From: Candidatus Bathyarchaeia archaeon
Lineage (GTDB): Archaea; Thermoproteota; Bathyarchaeia; Bathyarchaeales; Bathycorpusculaceae
Length of the DNA: 64,000 nt
NCBI GenBank assembly: GCA_038883655.1
Contig: JAVZLQ010000001.1
Coordinates: 160,001 to 224,000, forward strand
Direction: 5' to 3'
This document shows positions 34,130 to 49,815 of this stretch, piece by piece. Positions within the stretch are counted from its first letter, which is position 1. Each line of letters starts with the position of its first letter. A program made the translations under genes and the position numbers. Under the pieces are notes generated by a model. It did no database searches and was not told the origin of the DNA. It was given only the letters and a program-made list of their open reading frames with translations.

Positions 34130-34222
34130 GGGCCCGTGGCGCAGCATGGATAGAAAAGCCAACCCAAAAAGCGCGTCGGCCTTCTAAGCCGGAGATCCCG
34201 GGTTCAAATCCCGGCGGGCCCG
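34130..34222 (+). tRNA. tRNA-Arg(TCT) with 18-nt D-loop intron (about 34152-34169)
   Basis: Acceptor GGGCCCG/CGGGCCC, D-stem GCGC/GCGC, anticodon arm TCGGC-CT TCT AA-GCCGG, T arm CCGGG TTCAAAT CCCGG; 18 extra nt in the D-loop. Confidence 0.92.
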
Positions 34223-36848: not shown

Positions 36849-37406
36849 ATGGATGTGGAAAAGGAAAAAGCTGCTGTTAAGGCTGAATTCAGAGTCAGGG
36901 GTTTGCTATTGGAGAAAGGCGTCAAAATTTCGGAGAAGCAAAGCGTTGATGAGCTTTCCTCAAAAGGCTATGGCATGGCTGAAGATAATTCGCTTATCCT
37001 AGCCTTTTACGAGGCACTTTATCTTCTGGAGAAGGGATTACTCGAAGTTGAGAATGAAAGTGGCAAGACTGTTGACTTTAAGGGACTCTTACAACTTTAT
37101 GAGCGGGTTGACGAAAATGCGTGGGCGAAATATTTGGTGTACCGCGACTTGAGAAGTAGGGGTTACGTTGTTCGTGAAGGTTTTGGTTTGGGTGTTGATT
37201 TTCGTGTTTATGAAAGAGGCGAGTATGGTAAGGATACTGCCAAATACCTAATTTTGAACATTCAGGAGGGCAAGCCAATTTCGGTTGAGGATTTAACCCG
37301 CATTATGAGGCAGTGTCAAAGCCTCAAGAAGGAGCTTATTTTGGCTGTTATGAACCGTAGGGGAGAAACTGTTTACTATTCCCTTTCACAATTAAACCTA
37401 CCATAA
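36849..37406 (+). CDS. endA: tRNA splicing endonuclease subunit, probably structural (beta)
   Basis: YEALYL and VYRDLRSRGYVVREG..DFRVY motifs; no His at the catalytic position (TAKYLI). Confidence 0.85.
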   Translation: MDVEKEKAAVKAEFRVRGLLLEKGVKISEKQSVDELSSKGYGMAEDNSLILAFYEALYLLEKGLLEVENESGKTVDFKGLLQLYERVDENAWAKYLVYRDLRSRGYVVREGFGLGVDFRVYERGEYGKDTAKYLILNIQEGKPISVEDLTRIMRQCQSLKKELILAVMNRRGETVYYSLSQLNLP

Positions 37407-44359: not shown

Positions 44360-44444
44360 TGCGGGGGGTGGGATTTGAACCCACGAACCCCTACGGGACA
44401 AGGTCCTAAGCCTTGCGCCTTTGACCAGGCTTGGCGACCCCCGC
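44360..44444 (-). tRNA. tRNA-Leu(TAG)
   Basis: GCGGGGG/CCCCCGC acceptor, CAAGG-CT TAG GA-CCTTG anticodon arm, long variable arm, GTGGG TTCAAAT CCCAC T arm. Confidence 0.96.
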
Positions 44445-44511: not shown

Positions 44512-44526
44512 CGAAATCTTTTAAAA
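44512..44526 (+). promoter_or_regulatory. Putative BRE/TATA promoter of tRNA-Thr
   Basis: CGAAA followed by TTTTAAAA about 25 nt upstream of the tRNA 5' end. Confidence 0.45.
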
Positions 44527-44550
44527 AATATGATGTGTATACTTGTTTGG

Positions 44551-44646
44551 GCCTCGGTAGCTCAGCCTGGTGGAGCATCGCCTTGGTAAGGCGGTGGTCG
44601 CGGGTTCAAATCCCGCCCGAGAACCGCCGTGTGCGGTCGGGAAGCT
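44551..44646 (+). tRNA. tRNA-Thr(GGT) with 22-nt BHB intron at 70/71 (44622-44643); integration target
   Basis: GCCTCGG pairs with CCGAG|GC only after intron removal; anticodon arm TCGCC-TT GGT AA-GGCGG; discriminator T. Confidence 0.9.
44578..44627 (+). repeat. attL (3' half of tRNA-Thr plus intron start)
   Basis: Identical to 49420-49469; similarity continues to about 44657/49499. Confidence 0.95.
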
Positions 44647-44826
44647 TTGGTTTGAACCCGCCTTGCCGCCGTTAGTGTTGTTTAGGGCGTTTTGGATGTT
44701 TAGGTTTGAGAGGTGGGCGATTGCTTGTTTTAGGGCGTTTTCTGTGAATTGTGAGATGTTTATGCCTAATTCTTTAGCTTTTTTGACTGTTTCGGCGTCT
44801 ATTGAAAGGGTTAGTTTTGTTTTCAC
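44578..44826 (-). CDS. Integrase N-terminal fragment int(N), with RHH-like domain
   Basis: GTG start after GGTGA; KTKLTLSID..AKELGINISQFTENAL; reads through att in frame with int(C). In the integrated state the ORF runs on to a stop at 44521. Confidence 0.85.
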
Positions 44827-44870
44827 GTTCTCACCTACACGTATATTCACGTATGACAAATATTTACCAT

Positions 44871-45017
44871 TCACTCTTTTTTTTCTGTTTCGATGAGTTT
44901 GGCGATGGCGTATTCTATGGCGTGACTTCTATTAGCAAAGCGTAGTTTCTGCACTTGGTCATCTATCCATTTAACGAAGTCTTCTCTTATGGTTACGTAA
45001 ACTCTTATTTTTGGCAT
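44871..45017 (-). CDS. CopG/ribbon-helix-helix protein (48 aa, not in ORF track)
   Basis: Hand translation: MPKIRVYVTIREDFVKWIDDQVQKLRFANRSHAIEYAIAKLIETEKKE. Confidence 0.85.
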   Translation of the reverse strand: MPKIRVYVTIREDFVKWIDDQVQKLRFANRSHAIEYAIAKLIETEKKE

Positions 45018-45139
45018 TTCAACCATTCTTTTTTACCTTCCCATATGAGTAGTTTATCCACAACTATACTCAAATATACACAAATCTTATAGATTTTCCG
45101 TTCAAAAATAGGATTTGCCTTTAAGGTGAGTGTGAGAAA

Positions 45140-45358
45140 ATGGAAAAGACGGAAATCAGCTTCTTTGGAAAGAGAAAGTGGCATATTCCCAGAAAATATA
45201 TTGTGGTTTCAAAGCGTCTTTGCAGCAGAGAGTTTAAGAAGTTGAGGCAATGGTTAGACGATAAAGACAGAATAGAGATAGGCACGGATTCAGAAGGGCG
45301 AATTTGGATTTTAAACGAAACCAAAGTTGGAGAGCATTTAAAAAGACAAAATAATTAA
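45140..45358 (+). CDS. Element hypothetical protein (72 aa)
   Basis: GGTGA upstream; basic protein; no recognised family. Confidence 0.55.
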   Translation: MEKTEISFFGKRKWHIPRKYIVVSKRLCSREFKKLRQWLDDKDRIEIGTDSEGRIWILNETKVGEHLKRQNN

Positions 45359-45368
45359 GCGCTATTGC

Positions 45369-45749
45369 CTATTTGCCTTCCAGCTTCCCCTTTTTCTTGT
45401 CAAGAGAACTCTTATTAATTGGAATTTCCGAAGGACTGAAATTTAACAGTCTTGATAATGGCAGGTCTGCAATATCAAATTCTTGAACAAAAGTTTTAAG
45501 ATGTCGTGCAAGTTGCAGAACATCTGCTTCTGGACTGTAATAATAGGGTTGAAATTTATGTCTCAAAATTAATCCTTTATTGATGAGTTTGTTTATACTT
45601 CTGGTTAAAAGTCTGTTGAAGGTATCCTCAGAATAAAACTCTTTAAATTTCGGATAAACAGCATTAAAGATTTCTTTTCGAGATTGCCATTCAGAGCATT
45701 TTTTCAAATATTCTCGTATTGCGTTTTCTATGTTGTCCATTATGGACAT
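45369..45749 (-). CDS. Winged-helix-like protein
   Basis: IREYL..SRKEIFNAV..LTRSINKLINKGLI pattern. Confidence 0.6.
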   Translation of the reverse strand: MSIMDNIENAIREYLKKCSEWQSRKEIFNAVYPKFKEFYSEDTFNRLLTRSINKLINKGLILRHKFQPYYYSPEADVLQLARHLKTFVQEFDIADLPLSRLLNFSPSEIPINKSSLDKKKGKLEGK

Positions 45750-45796
45750 ATCTGACTGAATGACAATTTAAGACTTACTGACAAAGGTGTGTAAAC

Positions 45797-45949
45797 ATGG
45801 AAAAAGTTAGAATAAGCGTAAGAATTGATGGAGAAGACTTCAAAAGAATCCAGGAAACCATAAAGAAGGCGTATCCGACTTTACGGTCTATTTCAGACGT
45901 GGTTCGCCAAGCTCTGAAAGAGTTTTTAATAAAATATGAAAGTGTGTGA
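45797..45949 (+). CDS. Ribbon-helix-helix protein (50 aa, not in ORF track)
   Basis: Hand translation: MEKVRISVRIDGEDFKRIQETIKKAYPTLRSISDVVRQALKEFLIKYESV. Confidence 0.82.
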   Translation: MEKVRISVRIDGEDFKRIQETIKKAYPTLRSISDVVRQALKEFLIKYESV

Positions 45950-46136
45950 GTGTATGTGTGTGTATTATAGAATGTCTGTCTTGTCTTTCTTCTTTTCTTC
46001 TTTCTTCTTTACCCCTAATATACATATACATACACACATACACACTAAACACACACCTTCACTAAGAAAGCAAGTTAAGCGGCGGCGAAGCTCTGCTTCT
46101 TTTCCCATAATACACACACTCACACATACACACACC
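45942..46136. repeat. TG/CA-rich imperfect inverted repeat around a pyrimidine tract; candidate origin
   Basis: gtgtgtgtattat (45956-45968) is the reverse complement of ataatacacacac (46107-46119); TTCT tract and further CA runs lie between. Confidence 0.7.
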
Positions 46137-46143
46137 CTTAAAG

Positions 46144-46398
46144 GTGATGTTCATGGTTAGACGAGACGGAGCAGAAATAAGAAAAGAAAGAATTCAAGAA
46201 GTAATTAGACGAGTTGTCGCCCTTCTCTACAACCATGATGAAGTTGAACTAGAATCCACAGTCGCCATGCTTCAATACGAAACAGGATTAAGACCAGACA
46301 AAATAATGGAATACCTATCAATTGGAGACCAGCTTAAACGGTTCGAGCTTGACATAGACAAAAATAAAATTAGAAAAATAAAAGCTGATGAAACATGA
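46144..46398 (+). CDS. Element small winged-helix-like protein
   Basis: GGTGA RBS; helices plus ETGLRPDKIMEYL and a terminal beta-hairpin. Confidence 0.65.
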   Translation: MMFMVRRDGAEIRKERIQEVIRRVVALLYNHDEVELESTVAMLQYETGLRPDKIMEYLSIGDQLKRFELDIDKNKIRKIKADET

Positions 46399-46520
46399 GT
46401 CTTTATGAGTTTGGTGTTTTGGTTCTTGTTCTCGTCGTGTTTTTCTAGTTGTTTTGGCATATCTGGTTAATGCCTTCTGGAGCTGGAAACTATGAGAACT
46501 AAAATTTTAATTCGCTATAA

Positions 46521-46748
46521 GTGGTGCAAAACCGCCATACTCTTTTACCCCTAATACTGTTTGTCATTGCAATATTAACAAGCATAGAACCGCACTTCTA
46601 TCCACTGTTCATATTCTTCTCAGTGGATTTTCTATTGATAGTTAGCGCCGCCTTCTACCTAATCGTTGAACATGGAATTAAAATCTTCAATAAATATGAA
46701 GATAAAGAGTTATATGGTTTATTGCAAAAAGCTGATAAATGGATTTAA
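46521..46748 (+). CDS. Small 2-TM membrane protein
   Basis: Two hydrophobic segments; start uncertain. Confidence 0.5.
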   Translation: MVQNRHTLLPLILFVIAILTSIEPHFYPLFIFFSVDFLLIVSAAFYLIVEHGIKIFNKYEDKELYGLLQKADKWI

Positions 46749-46763
46749 CCTTATATTAGAAGG

Positions 46764-47072
46764 ATGACAATGAACATAAATAAGAGGGTTATAATTTTTA
46801 GCATATTGCTAATTTACTTTTTGCCTACATTGATTGAGTGGATTCAAATTTTTAATGAAACTTCCAAGTATGGTTATCCCCAAAGCAATAGATATTTTGA
46901 AATATTCTTAATATTCTTCCTATCATCTTTCATTTGGATGCCAATTGCAATATTTTTTTATTTCCCTACGCCATTAATATGGAAAATCAGTTTAGCTTCG
47001 TATTATATTATCGCCTACGGAATTTTGGCATGCATAATCCTTTACAAATATAGAAAAATTAGAAAAAATTAG
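46764..47072 (+). CDS. Small 3-TM membrane protein
   Basis: Three hydrophobic segments and a basic C-terminus; AT-rich. Confidence 0.6.
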   Translation: MTMNINKRVIIFSILLIYFLPTLIEWIQIFNETSKYGYPQSNRYFEIFLIFFLSSFIWMPIAIFFYFPTPLIWKISLASYYIIAYGILACIILYKYRKIRKN

Positions 47073-47075
47073 TTT

Positions 47076-48119
47076 TTAAATTCTATCAAAAAACCATTTC
47101 CCTAAAATTATGCCAAATAAAATCGTTCCAATAACAATCGCATAATTTTTGGGGTCTTCATACCATTTTTCTATTGAAGGGATGCTTTCCCCTTTAATTT
47201 GTGCAATATATTGTTTAGTTAAATTGTAAAGATAGTATGGGTCATTATTCCATGCATCACGGTCATAATGCGGTTCAATTGCTGTGCGCTCTGGGAATTC
47301 ATTCCAAGTAGCAATTGTTACAATATCAATTTTATTTGCCTTTGCATATTTGATAGCATCTTTCCATTCATTTTCATAAATTGGCAATGATAAATCTTTA
47401 TTTATTGTGTAATTAGGATAGCGCACATAAAAATCATCATATCGCGGACATAAAGGATACATTCGACAATAAGGTATATCGTAAAACTTGTTATTTTTCC
47501 ATGACTGATATGGTTCATATCCTTCAAAATGCGAATAAACAAAATTACAGAATGAAAAATGTCCAGAAAATTTTACGGTAAAACGGTCATCATATTGAAA
47601 TTTTGAAAAATCTGTTAAATTTGGAGCATTCCAAAAGAGAATTAATGGTTTGTTATCCATTATGAAACATAGGGAATAGTAAGGCAAAATATAATTTTCG
47701 TAAACGTAATCATAGATAGATTTATAATCGTAAATTCCAGATTGGTTAAAATCTTCAACCATCAAACAAAATTTAATGTTTGAAACTTGATTTTTTGCGC
47801 ATTCATAAACCAATTTAGCATTATTATCTATGTGATTGCCTATTCCCCACCATGAAATTATGACAAAATCTATTTTAAGGTCATTCCACCATTCTAAATG
47901 CTGATTAATAACCGTTATATTTCCGCTATTGTAATAACCTAAAATTGGTTTATCTTGATGCGTTGGGTATGACCAATTATAATAGGCATCTGGAGAATCG
48001 GGGTCATACCAAACATAATAGTATATGCCTACTTTGATTTTAGGCGTTTCTGAATAGGCGCATGGAATGCAAAGTAGCAAAAAACATAAAAAAAGGGGAG
48101 TTGAAGGGGGGACATTCAT
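47076..48119 (-). CDS. Membrane-anchored GH99-like glycoside hydrolase
   Basis: Signal peptide; YYYVWY, GYYNS, ISWWG and TWNEFPERTAIEP motifs; C-terminal TM; start set at MNVPP. Confidence 0.8.
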   Translation of the reverse strand: MNVPPSTPLFLCFLLLCIPCAYSETPKIKVGIYYYVWYDPDSPDAYYNWSYPTHQDKPILGYYNSGNITVINQHLEWWNDLKIDFVIISWWGIGNHIDNNAKLVYECAKNQVSNIKFCLMVEDFNQSGIYDYKSIYDYVYENYILPYYSLCFIMDNKPLILFWNAPNLTDFSKFQYDDRFTVKFSGHFSFCNFVYSHFEGYEPYQSWKNNKFYDIPYCRMYPLCPRYDDFYVRYPNYTINKDLSLPIYENEWKDAIKYAKANKIDIVTIATWNEFPERTAIEPHYDRDAWNNDPYYLYNLTKQYIAQIKGESIPSIEKWYEDPKNYAIVIGTILFGIILGKWFFDRI

Positions 48120-48406
48120 GTTTTTATACCGCCCTACGTAGTATTCCAATAGCTATGCCTAATAGCGCAATGCTGAATATTACATATATCCATTGCGATA
48201 TCATTACAGATGCAGATGAAGTCATACGTTTTAGGAATATTCCAAGAACAACCGTGCAGTTTGACCCTTACCGCATTGCCGTCTGGAAGTTGGAAAGTGA
48301 CAAAAAAACCATAGATATTATAGATAGAGACATAAAAATCGCATTAGATTATGTTAAGTTGGATTCGCATGAAGTCATGCAAAAATACGCTTTAAAAATA
48401 CCGTAG
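48062..48406 (+). CDS. Hypothetical protein (start uncertain)
   Basis: Open frame in the gap between GH99 and int(C); no motif. Confidence 0.3.
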   Translation: MECKVAKNIKKGELKGGHSCFYTALRSIPIAMPNSAMLNITYIHCDIITDADEVIRFRNIPRTTVQFDPYRIAVWKLESDKKTIDIIDRDIKIALDYVKLDSHEVMQKYALKIP

Positions 48407-48585
48407 CGACTTAACATGGGCAGTCAAGCGCGGAATATCTAAACTCTATGATGTGGTAGTGCGTGTTGAGAGGAAACAAGCATTAGATAATTCTACAAAC
48501 ATGCTTTAAACATTGAAATTTTATGGAAAAGTTATCGCCTTTTCGAGGCGATTGAAGTTTGTGGAAATATAAAAAAGTAGGAAGT

Positions 48586-49419
48586 TTAAGTGATTTTAGA
48601 TTGTATTTCCGCTATGCCTTTGAACACTCTTTCCTTCAAATCGCTTATCAACGCGGGATTAAAGTAGTTCTGCATGAAAACGCTTATGCCTATCCGTCCA
48701 TGTATGAAATCGATTTCTGGCGGTTTAAGGTATTGAGTCATTAGGGTAGCGTGAGCTTCTCTTATGTCTCCAAATTTGCATTCTAATCCGCGTTTCTGTA
48801 GTCGTTGGAGAATTGCGTGTGCGCTTGGCAAGGGTTTACTACAACTTATCTTTTCAATTATTTCTTTTGGCATGAAGACAACAAAGCTCTTTTTTGTGCG
48901 TCTTATGAATTTGTTTTTAAACTTGTAGTTTTCCAAAGCACAATTTTCACAGTTGTAGTATTCGCTTAACTTTCCTTCTCTATGGAGCTGGATTATCAAG
49001 TTGTAGCTTTCCACTGCTTCAACTAACCGCATACCGCTATACGTAATGAAATCAAAGAATAACGCCAAATCTGGAAAATCCGCCTTAATTTGTTTAACCC
49101 ACTGGAAAATGCTTTCTGGGTCTATAACCTTTGTTAATCGTTGAATCAAAAGGTCATCTTTCGCCTTTCCACTCCATTTCAAACCGTAGCTTCTAACTAG
49201 TTGTTTGAACTTCTCGTAAACTCCCAAATACTTCGCTAACACACTTAACGCCTTCAACACGTGACCACGCTTGTCATCACTTAAAACCATCAAATCACTC
49301 AAGTTCTCACTAACCAAACAATGCGCATACTGTCTAGCATAACTGAACCTTTCCCTCGCCCTATTACGCTTATACAACTTCAACAAATACTCAAAGAAAC
49401 CATCCCAATCAATCAAAAG
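48586..49419 (-). CDS. Integrase C-terminal catalytic fragment int(C)
   Basis: SGMRLVEA (R), TKK, DIREAHAT, IDFIHGR and QNYF (Tyr); begins immediately at attR. Confidence 0.9.
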   Translation of the reverse strand, partial: LLIDWDGFFEYLLKLYKRNRARERFSYARQYAHCLVSENLSDLMVLSDDKRGHVLKALSVLAKYLGVYEKFKQLVRSYGLKWSGKAKDDLLIQRLTKVIDPESIFQWVKQIKADFPDLALFFDFITYSGMRLVEAVESYNLIIQLHREGKLSEYYNCENCALENYKFKNKFIRRTKKSFVVFMPKEIIEKISCSKPLPSAHAILQRLQKRGLECKFGDIREAHATLMTQYLKPPEIDFIHGRIGISVFMQNYFNPALISDLKERVFKGIAEIQSKIT

Positions 49420-49469
49420 TCGCCTTGGTAAGGCGGTGGTCGCGGGTTCAAATCCCGCCCGAGAACCGC
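49420..49469 (+). repeat. attR (duplicate 3' half of tRNA-Thr; intron-containing end extends to 49488)
   Basis: Exact 50-bp copy of 44578-44627. Confidence 0.95.
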
Positions 49470-49536
49470 TTTGGGCGGTCGGGAAGCTCTGATTTGAACT
49501 CGCGATCGCATTCGCTTCATTGTTTAGTGCTTGTTT
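49470..49536 (-). pseudogene. Remnant of int(N) from an older related element
   Basis: Translates KQALNNEANAIASSNQSFPTAQS, collinear with int(N) QNALNNTNGGKAGSNQSFPTAHG; upstream in-frame stop at 49537-49539. Confidence 0.7.
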
Positions 49537-49815
49537 TTAAGCCAATACTGATCTATCCCCCTAGGATTCTTTAGAAAATGGTGTATAGCCACAGCCTTAT
49601 TTTCCCTACCCCTCCCTCTAGGCATAAGACATCCAAAAAGTGTAGATCGTTAATTAGCCTTAGATCTGCACGTATAGTTAAAGATTCACGAGCAAATTGA
49701 AGGGCAGAAGTAAAAATGATAATTTTGAATTAGATGTCTATAAGGCGCATTTAGCCATAAATGTTTTCGAAAATCTTAAATGAAAATGATTTGATAACGT
49801 CTAAATGGTGTTATA

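Follow-up and report, generated by a model that had tools for sequence, protein, structure and literature searches.

A candidate intron three bases from the 3' end of an archaeal tRNA-Thr(GGU) gene, associated with a small SSV-type integrative element

The tRNA-Thr(GGU) gene of the window (the whole 64,000-nt stretch of bathyarchaeal DNA analysed here) is interrupted between G70 and G71 by a 22-nt insert that leaves only three bases of the tRNA downstream. We consider it rather likely that this insert is a relaxed HBh' intron at position 70/71, installed by a small SSV-type element integrated in the gene. From the sequence comparisons the insert is probably a real intron, and it appears likely to be spliced.

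Results

A 22-nt insert at the 3' end of tRNA-Thr(GGU)

44360..44444 (-): tRNA-Leu(UAG), adjoining tRNA-Thr(GGU); the same neighbour is found at the other insert-bearing loci
44518..44530 (+): likely archaeal promoter element read from the sequence, an A/T-rich box (CTTTTAAAAAAT) that precedes the tRNA start by about 22-33 nt
44551..44621 (+): 5' exon of tRNA-Thr(GGU), positions 1-70 (ARAGORN, Rfam); 87-99% identity to orthologues in 29 loci
44622..44643 (+): intron-like insert of 22 nt between G70 and G71; no counterpart in 28 of 29 orthologues; seven further loci have it, with variants
44644..44646 (+): 3' exon, G71 C72 U73; corresponds to the GCT after G70 in orthologues and is invariant in all insert variants

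The first-pass annotation, made from the sequence alone, had pointed out that the unspliced 3' strand mispairs with the 5' end of the gene, and this was borne out: GCCTCGG (44551-44557) and CCGAGAA (44617-44623) form five pairs, followed by the mismatches C2.A and G1.A. ARAGORN places tRNA-Thr(GGT) at 44551-44625 with a mispaired acceptor end, and the Rfam tRNA model gives a local match only (44553-44621, model positions 3-68, 52.2 bits); the intact orthologue L003, from the same genus, scores 66.5 bits over the full model. The expectation that standard tools would call the gene truncated holds for these two programs, which miss the true 3' end, but does not carry over to tRNAscan-SE 2.0, which, in the accessible part of its description, lengthens candidates by 60 nt so as not to miss introns close to the gene ends (PMC8450103).

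The position of the insert was fixed by comparison with 29 orthologous tRNA-Thr(GGU) loci from 60 relatives. In 28 of them CCCGCCCGAG is followed directly by GCT, often as GCTCCA; the remaining one, L023, carries a canonical 37/38 intron and was compared only as far as G70. Since G70 is followed by GCT in these 28 orthologues, the insert lies exactly at 70/71 and the next three bases are the true positions 71-73, a placement that, on this alignment, is more than chance. Excision of 44622-44643 joins CCGAG to GCT and restores a 7-bp acceptor stem plus U73, so that the product and the 3-nt 3' exon predicted by the first-pass annotation carry the junction of the orthologues. CCA is not encoded at this gene in the window, and T-rich sequence lies 3' of GCT. 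In another genome of the same genus (G003), the tRNA-Leu/tRNA-Thr pair is the sole synteny with the window.

A relaxed bulge-helix-bulge fold

44616..44619 (+): central helix H, 5' strand CCCG (C65-G68); pairs with CGGG 44638-44641
44623..44637 (+): inner helix h' and loop; ACCGC 44623-44627 with GCGGT 44633-44637, loop CGTGT

From 5' to 3' the insert consists of A, the inner stem ACCGC/GCGGT with its loop CGTGT, CGGG, and AA. All parts of the bulge-helix-bulge (BHB) motif proposed in the earlier reading (CCCG/CGGG, AGA, AAG and ACCGC/GCGGT) were located where it had placed them. The 5' bulge AGA (44620-44622) is closed by H and h', and the 3' bulge AAG (44642-44644) has no outer helix except for one possible G64-C72 pair, so by its pairing potential the insert can adopt the relaxed HBh' form of the motif. 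All four pairs of H are invariant in six of six aligned sequences; its formation costs the T stem its C65. Cutting after the second base of each bulge gives the same G70-G71 junction as in 28 of the 29 orthologues.

The motif is not the favoured fold of the precursor: at 37 °C and for protein-free RNA, the productive register reaches -28.8 kcal/mol versus -41.2 kcal/mol for the minimum free energy (MFE) fold. The hairpin combined with a cloverleaf whose acceptor stem has 5 bp, at -32.8 kcal/mol, is likewise more stable than the productive BHB. A register shifted by one base, which would yield the wrong product, comes to -29.3 kcal/mol and is the one selected by the MFE fold. MFE folds and shuffles do not single out the region, the folding z-scores of -0.59 and -0.26 being unremarkable.

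A small integrated element with a split integrase

44578..44695 (+): attL; tRNA 27-70, insert, GCT and flank, repeated at attR (pairwise comparison of both copies)
44647..44874 (-): Int(N), N-terminal part of a split integrase, RHH/CcdA-like (PF07362, 5e-8)
44647..49419 (no strand): element body; 4,842 bp from repeat to repeat
48586..49419 (-): Int(C), catalytic part of the integrase (PF16795, 3.7e-9; phrog_5127 integrase, 2.3e-12)
49420..49488 (+): attR; tRNA 27-70 (49420-49463), 22-nt insert with loop TTTGG (49464-49485) and GCT (49486-49488) (pairwise comparison)
49489..49540 (-): decayed Int(N)-like frame with about 20 codons left before stops set in; similar to the attL flank

The tRNA 3' part with its insert occurs twice in the window, 44578-44646 being directly repeated at 49420-49488 on the other border of an integrated element. 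This second copy, the split SSV-type integrase and the location of the insert within the attachment site of the element had been overlooked in the first-pass annotation. An open reading frame on the minus strand (44521-44874) runs antisense through the insert and the tRNA; at the other end, the minus-strand ORF with the PF16795 match covers 48586-49416. Int(C) matches phrog_5127 at profile positions 126-337 of 355 only, with the N-terminal 125 absent, and when the ends of Int(N) and Int(C) were joined in silico the frame stayed open for 394 codons at every crossover tried. By this organisation the element is of the SSV type, with a predicted attP inside an integrase gene that integration would split. 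As attP lies within the integrase frame, the insert belongs both to the attachment site and to the integrase reading frame. Judged from its codons, the remnant at 49489-49540 derives from an earlier element.

The other genes of the element encode RHH/CopG-like regulators, small membrane proteins and a 357-aa protein. The latter (47076-48149, -) has hydrophobic ends and a GH99 match of 21.6 bits, below the cut-off of 33. No capsid or other virion hallmark was found among the ORFs tested (Pfam, PHROGs), nor any recognisable replication gene. Since fusellovirus-like gene content is absent, the element is better called a small cryptic integrative element. As for a free form, the insert pattern had 0 matches in IMG/VR viral contigs, and no relatives of Int(C) were retrieved from IMG/VR or phage records with the queries used.

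Two further features of the element were observed. The stretch 45939-46140 is of low complexity, its ORF translations contain His/Thr- and Cys/Val-rich repeats, and reads seem to be cut there. A contig of sequencing run X2 (depth 29, the shorter side only 27 nt) joins 45024 to 49429, skipping 4,404 nt; its source may be a related element or a different organism.

Origin of the insert at other loci

Three further loci preserve both borders of related elements. In G062, attL carries the insert, and attR, on contig 19 beside Int(C), reads ...CCCGAG GCT and is insert-free. In G137, attL has the insert and attR the native end; both halves of the integrase are decayed while the insert is intact. In L159, a single 6,490-nt contig holds both borders, with an 18-nt insert at attL and the native end at attR; this element measures 5,362 bp and its joined integrase frame is open (377 aa). 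In the pairs with a native-end attR, the identity between attL and attR extends over 44 nt (tRNA 27-70). The presence of the insert at attL and its absence from attR in G062, G137 and L159 indicate that the native gene was insert-free and that the element supplied the insert. From these border comparisons, delivery by the element is very likely.

Int(N)-like sequence adjoins every insert-bearing locus. The insert at attR of the window is the loop-TTTGG version, which is also found in G061, G062 and G137. The simplest reading of the window is that its gene was invaded twice, the second element having entered a gene that already carried an insert.

The insert is rare among relatives. A scan of the family, complete for 332 genomes, found the pattern in 4, the genome of the window (G000) included; it was absent from 328 of the 331 other family genomes and from all three same-genus genomes. 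The survey of relatives for 70/71 introns, which the first-pass annotation had proposed, turned up further cases of the insert in the family and none in the three same-genus genomes. A metagenome scan gave three matches, all of them consisting of tRNA-Thr(GGU), insert and an Int(N)-like frame. The pattern scan over one genome per species returned at least 119 stretches, and among the matches listed two were in tRNA context (L077, L117); G137 was not among the matches listed, and these global counts are lower bounds.

A census of Int(N) comprised 30 loci, 27 of them with a tblastn match and 20 of those with an ARAGORN tRNA call. By eye, an interrupted 3' strand was seen at the window's own locus and L212 only, and the Thr(GGU) attL sites L213, L214 and L224 are uninterrupted. 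As most of the census is uninterrupted, attP-borne introns are not general in this integrase family. At six sites (L215, L217, L218, L224, L225 and L238) a hairpin lies directly 3' of an intact tRNA end, within the Int(N) frame, and the hairpin of related attL sites is partly conserved among elements targeting different tRNAs. In L159, a second tRNA-like T arm with an acceptor 3' strand lies within the integrase frame just 3' of the tRNA-Thr GCT and might be the relic of a former attachment-site specificity.

Variation and constraint in the insert

Five distinct variants were recovered: three of 22 nt, which have loop CGTGT, loop TTTGG or stem ACCGT/ACGGT, one of 28 nt and one of 18 nt. All five have A after G70 and CGGG-AA before GCT, and four of the five retain a covarying inner stem. 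The 28-nt variant (L160) has a different 8-bp inner stem that includes a U.G pair; in the 18-nt variant (L159) the inner stem is nearly absent. In an alignment of six sequences, pairing extends to 96% of cells and three pairs vary at both of their bases, a result matched by 7 of 500 shuffles; with only five distinct variants, these statistics are thin. Between attL and attR of the window, 3 of the 22 bases of the insert differ, all of them in the 5-nt loop, which would have a probability of 10/1540 = 0.0065 if differences were random.

Over the inner stem and loop, no two variants share the peptide encoded by the integrase frame. The bases CGGGAA|GCT are constant in all variants, including the copies in which the integrase is decayed; as they encode Ser-Phe-Pro of the integrase, part of this conservation could be at the protein level. 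Related insert-free elements also have a hairpin after the tRNA, so conservation of the hairpin may serve another purpose.

Splicing enzymes and other interrupted tRNA genes of the host

36849..37406 (+): EndA paralogue without the catalytic His (Thr instead), structural beta-like subunit (sequence comparison)

The EndA paralogue in the window is, by sequence, probably the structural beta subunit. A catalytic EndA alpha that keeps the catalytic His is encoded outside the window (G000 C1:274106-274723) and resembles crenarchaeal catalytic subunits (2cv8, 3p1z_B). Its Lys59 and Lys61 align to K44 and R46 of the A. pernix specificity loop, which confers a broad substrate range according to the portion of PMC3241643 consulted. 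These features fit a host alpha/beta pair that would be able to cut relaxed motifs.

Other non-canonical inserts are present in G000, in a D loop, at 29/30 and in T loops. The genes for tRNA-Lys(UUU) and tRNA-Lys(CUU) (G000 C5:13725-13830 and C2:167947-168080), both missed by ARAGORN, have T-loop inserts of about 30 nt at 58/59. The insert of tRNA-Lys(UUU) forms a full hBHBh' motif, and cutting it by the same rule changed the number of genes called by ARAGORN from 0 to 1. That of tRNA-Lys(CUU) also shows a full hBHBh' by eye, and this gene has a further insert. A second element with an integrase of the same family occupies G000 C5:8139-13830 (Int(C) at C5:8192-9013, 53% identical); it is flanked by a 5' fragment of tRNA-Lys(UUU) (positions 1 to about 38) and the full gene, which points to an att site in the 5' half. 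In the window, tRNA-Arg(UCU) (34130-34222, +) has a D-loop insert of about 17 nt (about 34154-34170) with no obvious BHB by eye; the Rfam match covers model positions 9-63 only and skips the D arm, and the gene goes uncalled by ARAGORN.

Searches of G000, G061 and G137 revealed no further Thr(GGU) gene; the first-pass annotation had named a missing spliced product or cleavage, combined with another intact tRNA-Thr(GGU) in the genome, as what would speak against an intron, and the search of G000 brought no such gene to light. The other Thr genes of G137 are UGU and CGU. In G000, tRNA-Thr(UGU), tRNA-Thr(CGU) and several other isoacceptors were not found by ARAGORN, Rfam or an anticodon-loop scan; many tRNA genes of this genome are probably hidden by inserts, and, with Thr(UGU) and Thr(CGU) undetected, the search for tRNAs in it is evidently imperfect. 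At 93% completeness and 6.5% contamination, the assembly could have left a second Thr(GGU) gene unassembled.

Two sequencing runs of one study, designated 'RNA? (probably DNA)' and available as contigs, had word shares of 0.14 and 0.08. Their contigs contain no join skipping 44622-44643, in data that are probably DNA and in a form that cannot reveal rare or small RNAs. A 101-nt contig (record 8, run X2, probably DNA) covers 44606-44706 unspliced with 7 differences.

Alternative explanations

The insert could instead be damage left by integration, that is, integrase and attP sequence behind a tRNA truncated at G70, with GCT residual or coincidental, the gene a pseudogene, and Thr ACC/ACU codons read by an unassembled gene or another tRNA. 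That the insert lies within the integrase ORF, that the BHB is not the MFE fold, that hairpins follow the tRNA ends in related attL sites, and that the assembly is incomplete with Thr(UGU) and Thr(CGU) likewise undetected would all suit such an origin. We nevertheless regard it as unlikely, given that CGGG-AA|GCT stands in exact register in five of five variants, even where the integrase has decayed, and that three genomes yielded no second Thr(GGU) gene. The inner stem covaries, moreover, and its U.G pair is possible only on the tRNA-sense RNA strand. Related tRNA-targeting elements normally restore a clean 3' end, so a lineage that wrecks an essential single-copy tRNA gene would be unusual. 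A different way to do without splicing of the insert is to see in the hairpin an attP element acting at the level of DNA or transcription, such as an integrase-binding site or a terminator, with the tRNA matured without EndA. Hairpins directly downstream of the tRNA are indeed common in attL sites of this integrase family, and T-rich sequence follows GCT; against this, helix H and both 3-nt bulges stand in the register that gives the correct product, and L159 keeps CGGGAAGCT without the hairpin, which makes this reading very improbable. To our knowledge, only EndA together with a ligase could take out 22 internal nucleotides and reseal the tRNA between G70 and G71.

If the insert is an intron, it might still be an old, vertically inherited 70/71 intron of the host that the element copied along with the gene. 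Both attL and attR of the window carry an insert, and attP sequences track host tRNA genes. The roughly 20 decayed Int(N)-like codons after attR, on the other hand, mark the scar of an earlier element, and attR is native and uninterrupted at the three other loci; with the pattern missing from the three same-genus genomes and nearly all of the family, and Int(N)-like sequence beside every insert-bearing locus, native inheritance is quite improbable. The interpretation of the first-pass annotation is thereby modified: an intron agrees with the orthologues, the five variants, the kind of EndA in the host and the failure of the searches to find another Thr(GGU) gene, but it is not a peculiarity of the host gene, having apparently arrived with an element.

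Proposed mechanism

The preferred reading, a relaxed intron installed by the element, takes the observed position of the insert, its delivery, its variants and the host enzyme set as its starting points. The attP in the integrase gene would comprise tRNA 27-70, the intron and GCT. Recombination within the 44-nt stretch 27-70 would swap the native 3' end of the gene for the intron-bearing end at attL, and the displaced native end would become attR. In the window, an element with the loop-CGTGT insert would have entered a gene that held the loop-TTTGG insert from an earlier, since decayed element.

In the precursor, C65-G68 would pair with CGGG of the intron to form helix H. A69, G70 and the first A of the intron would make up the 5' bulge, closed by the inner hairpin h', and A-A-G71 would remain as an open 3' bulge after H, with the remaining 4 bp of the T stem possibly stacking on H in place of the missing outer helix. 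An alpha2beta2 EndA is predicted to cleave both bulges 3' of their second base, G70 and G71 then being joined by a ligase; 3' trimming after U73 and CCA addition could then follow, in an order that we infer.

More generally, small elements like this one in Bathyarchaeia-like archaea may write a spliceable, integrase-borne intron into an essential tRNA gene, where the intron outlasts the element, and this may be a recurrent route of intron gain. We put this forward tentatively, and as doubtful rather than probable. In G137 and at the attR scar of the window, the insert has remained after the element decayed. If the proposal is true, the intron may serve the element, the host coming to depend on the element-supplied 3' end once the native end decays.

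Discussion

Archaeal tRNA genes have many non-canonical introns, and this locus offers one concrete way of acquiring them. A 2026 Asgard preprint tested mobile elements, gene-to-gene copying and reverse transcription and, in the portion available, reports no general route and still regards the arrival of the introns as an open question (10.64898/2026.10.13.758758). A 70/71 intron would push the known intron positions out to only three bases from the 3' end of the tRNA and would raise the question in what order splicing, RNase P cleavage, 3' trimming and CCA addition take place. One DNA stretch would also be doubly constrained, encoding a protein linker on one strand and holding a splicing motif on the other. 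Tools whose search stops at the apparent 3' end will wrongly annotate such genes as truncated. The case is relevant to archaeal tRNA processing and to mobile elements.

The comparisons that follow draw on excerpts of the cited papers. Non-canonical archaeal tRNA introns with relaxed BHB motifs (hBH or HBh', names given by Marck and Grosjean 2003) occur mainly in Thermoproteota (Yoshihisa 2014, PMC4090602). Like them, the insert of the window would have a 4-bp central helix and 3-nt bulges with one flanking helix missing, and it lies outside 37/38 in a host with a predicted alpha2beta2 EndA. It is unlike them in its position at 70/71, its 3-nt 3' exon and its location inside a coding frame on the opposite strand. 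The positions given in the excerpt of that review are 3/4, 20/21, 22/23, 25/26, 29/30, 30/31, 45/46, 53/54, 56/57, 59/60, 'etc.'; 70/71 is not among them. A full-text literature search returned no relevant paper on an archaeal tRNA intron at 70/71, a position that supplementary tables may list. The extreme case in the excerpt, the Thermoproteales intron at 3/4, is likewise an acceptor-stem intron whose BHB forms at the expense of the cloverleaf, but it interrupts the other strand of that stem, at the other end, and the excerpt describes no link to an element.

The element resembles the SSV1 type, in which a 44-bp attP lies inside the integrase gene and int is partitioned after integration (PMC3293823, excerpt). 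Shared features are the 44-nt identity, in the attL/attR pairs with a native-end attR, the integrase split into N- and C-terminal parts at the two ends, and PF16795. It differs in that the tRNA 3' end it supplies is interrupted, in its size of about 4.8-5.4 kb and in having no recognisable virion or replication gene.

The closest precedent, as far as the excerpt goes, is a model by Sugahara et al. 2012 (PMC3293823) in which the intron is carried by attP. Put forward for Caldiarchaeum subterraneum tRNA-Thr(GGU) on the basis of one Caldiarchaeum population, it is the only mechanistic model of intron gain in the literature searched. In both cases an intron-bearing attP and an intron-free attB yield an intron in the rebuilt gene, and the isoacceptor is the same. 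The Caldiarchaeum case involves an intron at 24/25, a pNOB8-like element with an intact recombinase, a 5'-fragment repeat and a single population; the window, unlike it, has a split SSV-type integrase with the putative intron in its ORF at 70/71, attL with and attR without the insert at three further loci, and one re-invaded locus. The present loci thus give a cleaner, replicated picture of the model, with attR set against attL at three loci, the donor in the integrase frame and one gene invaded twice. The idea of an attP-borne intron had already been proposed; here the integrase type and the end of the gene affected are different, the position of the putative intron is new, and the before-and-after evidence is replicated.
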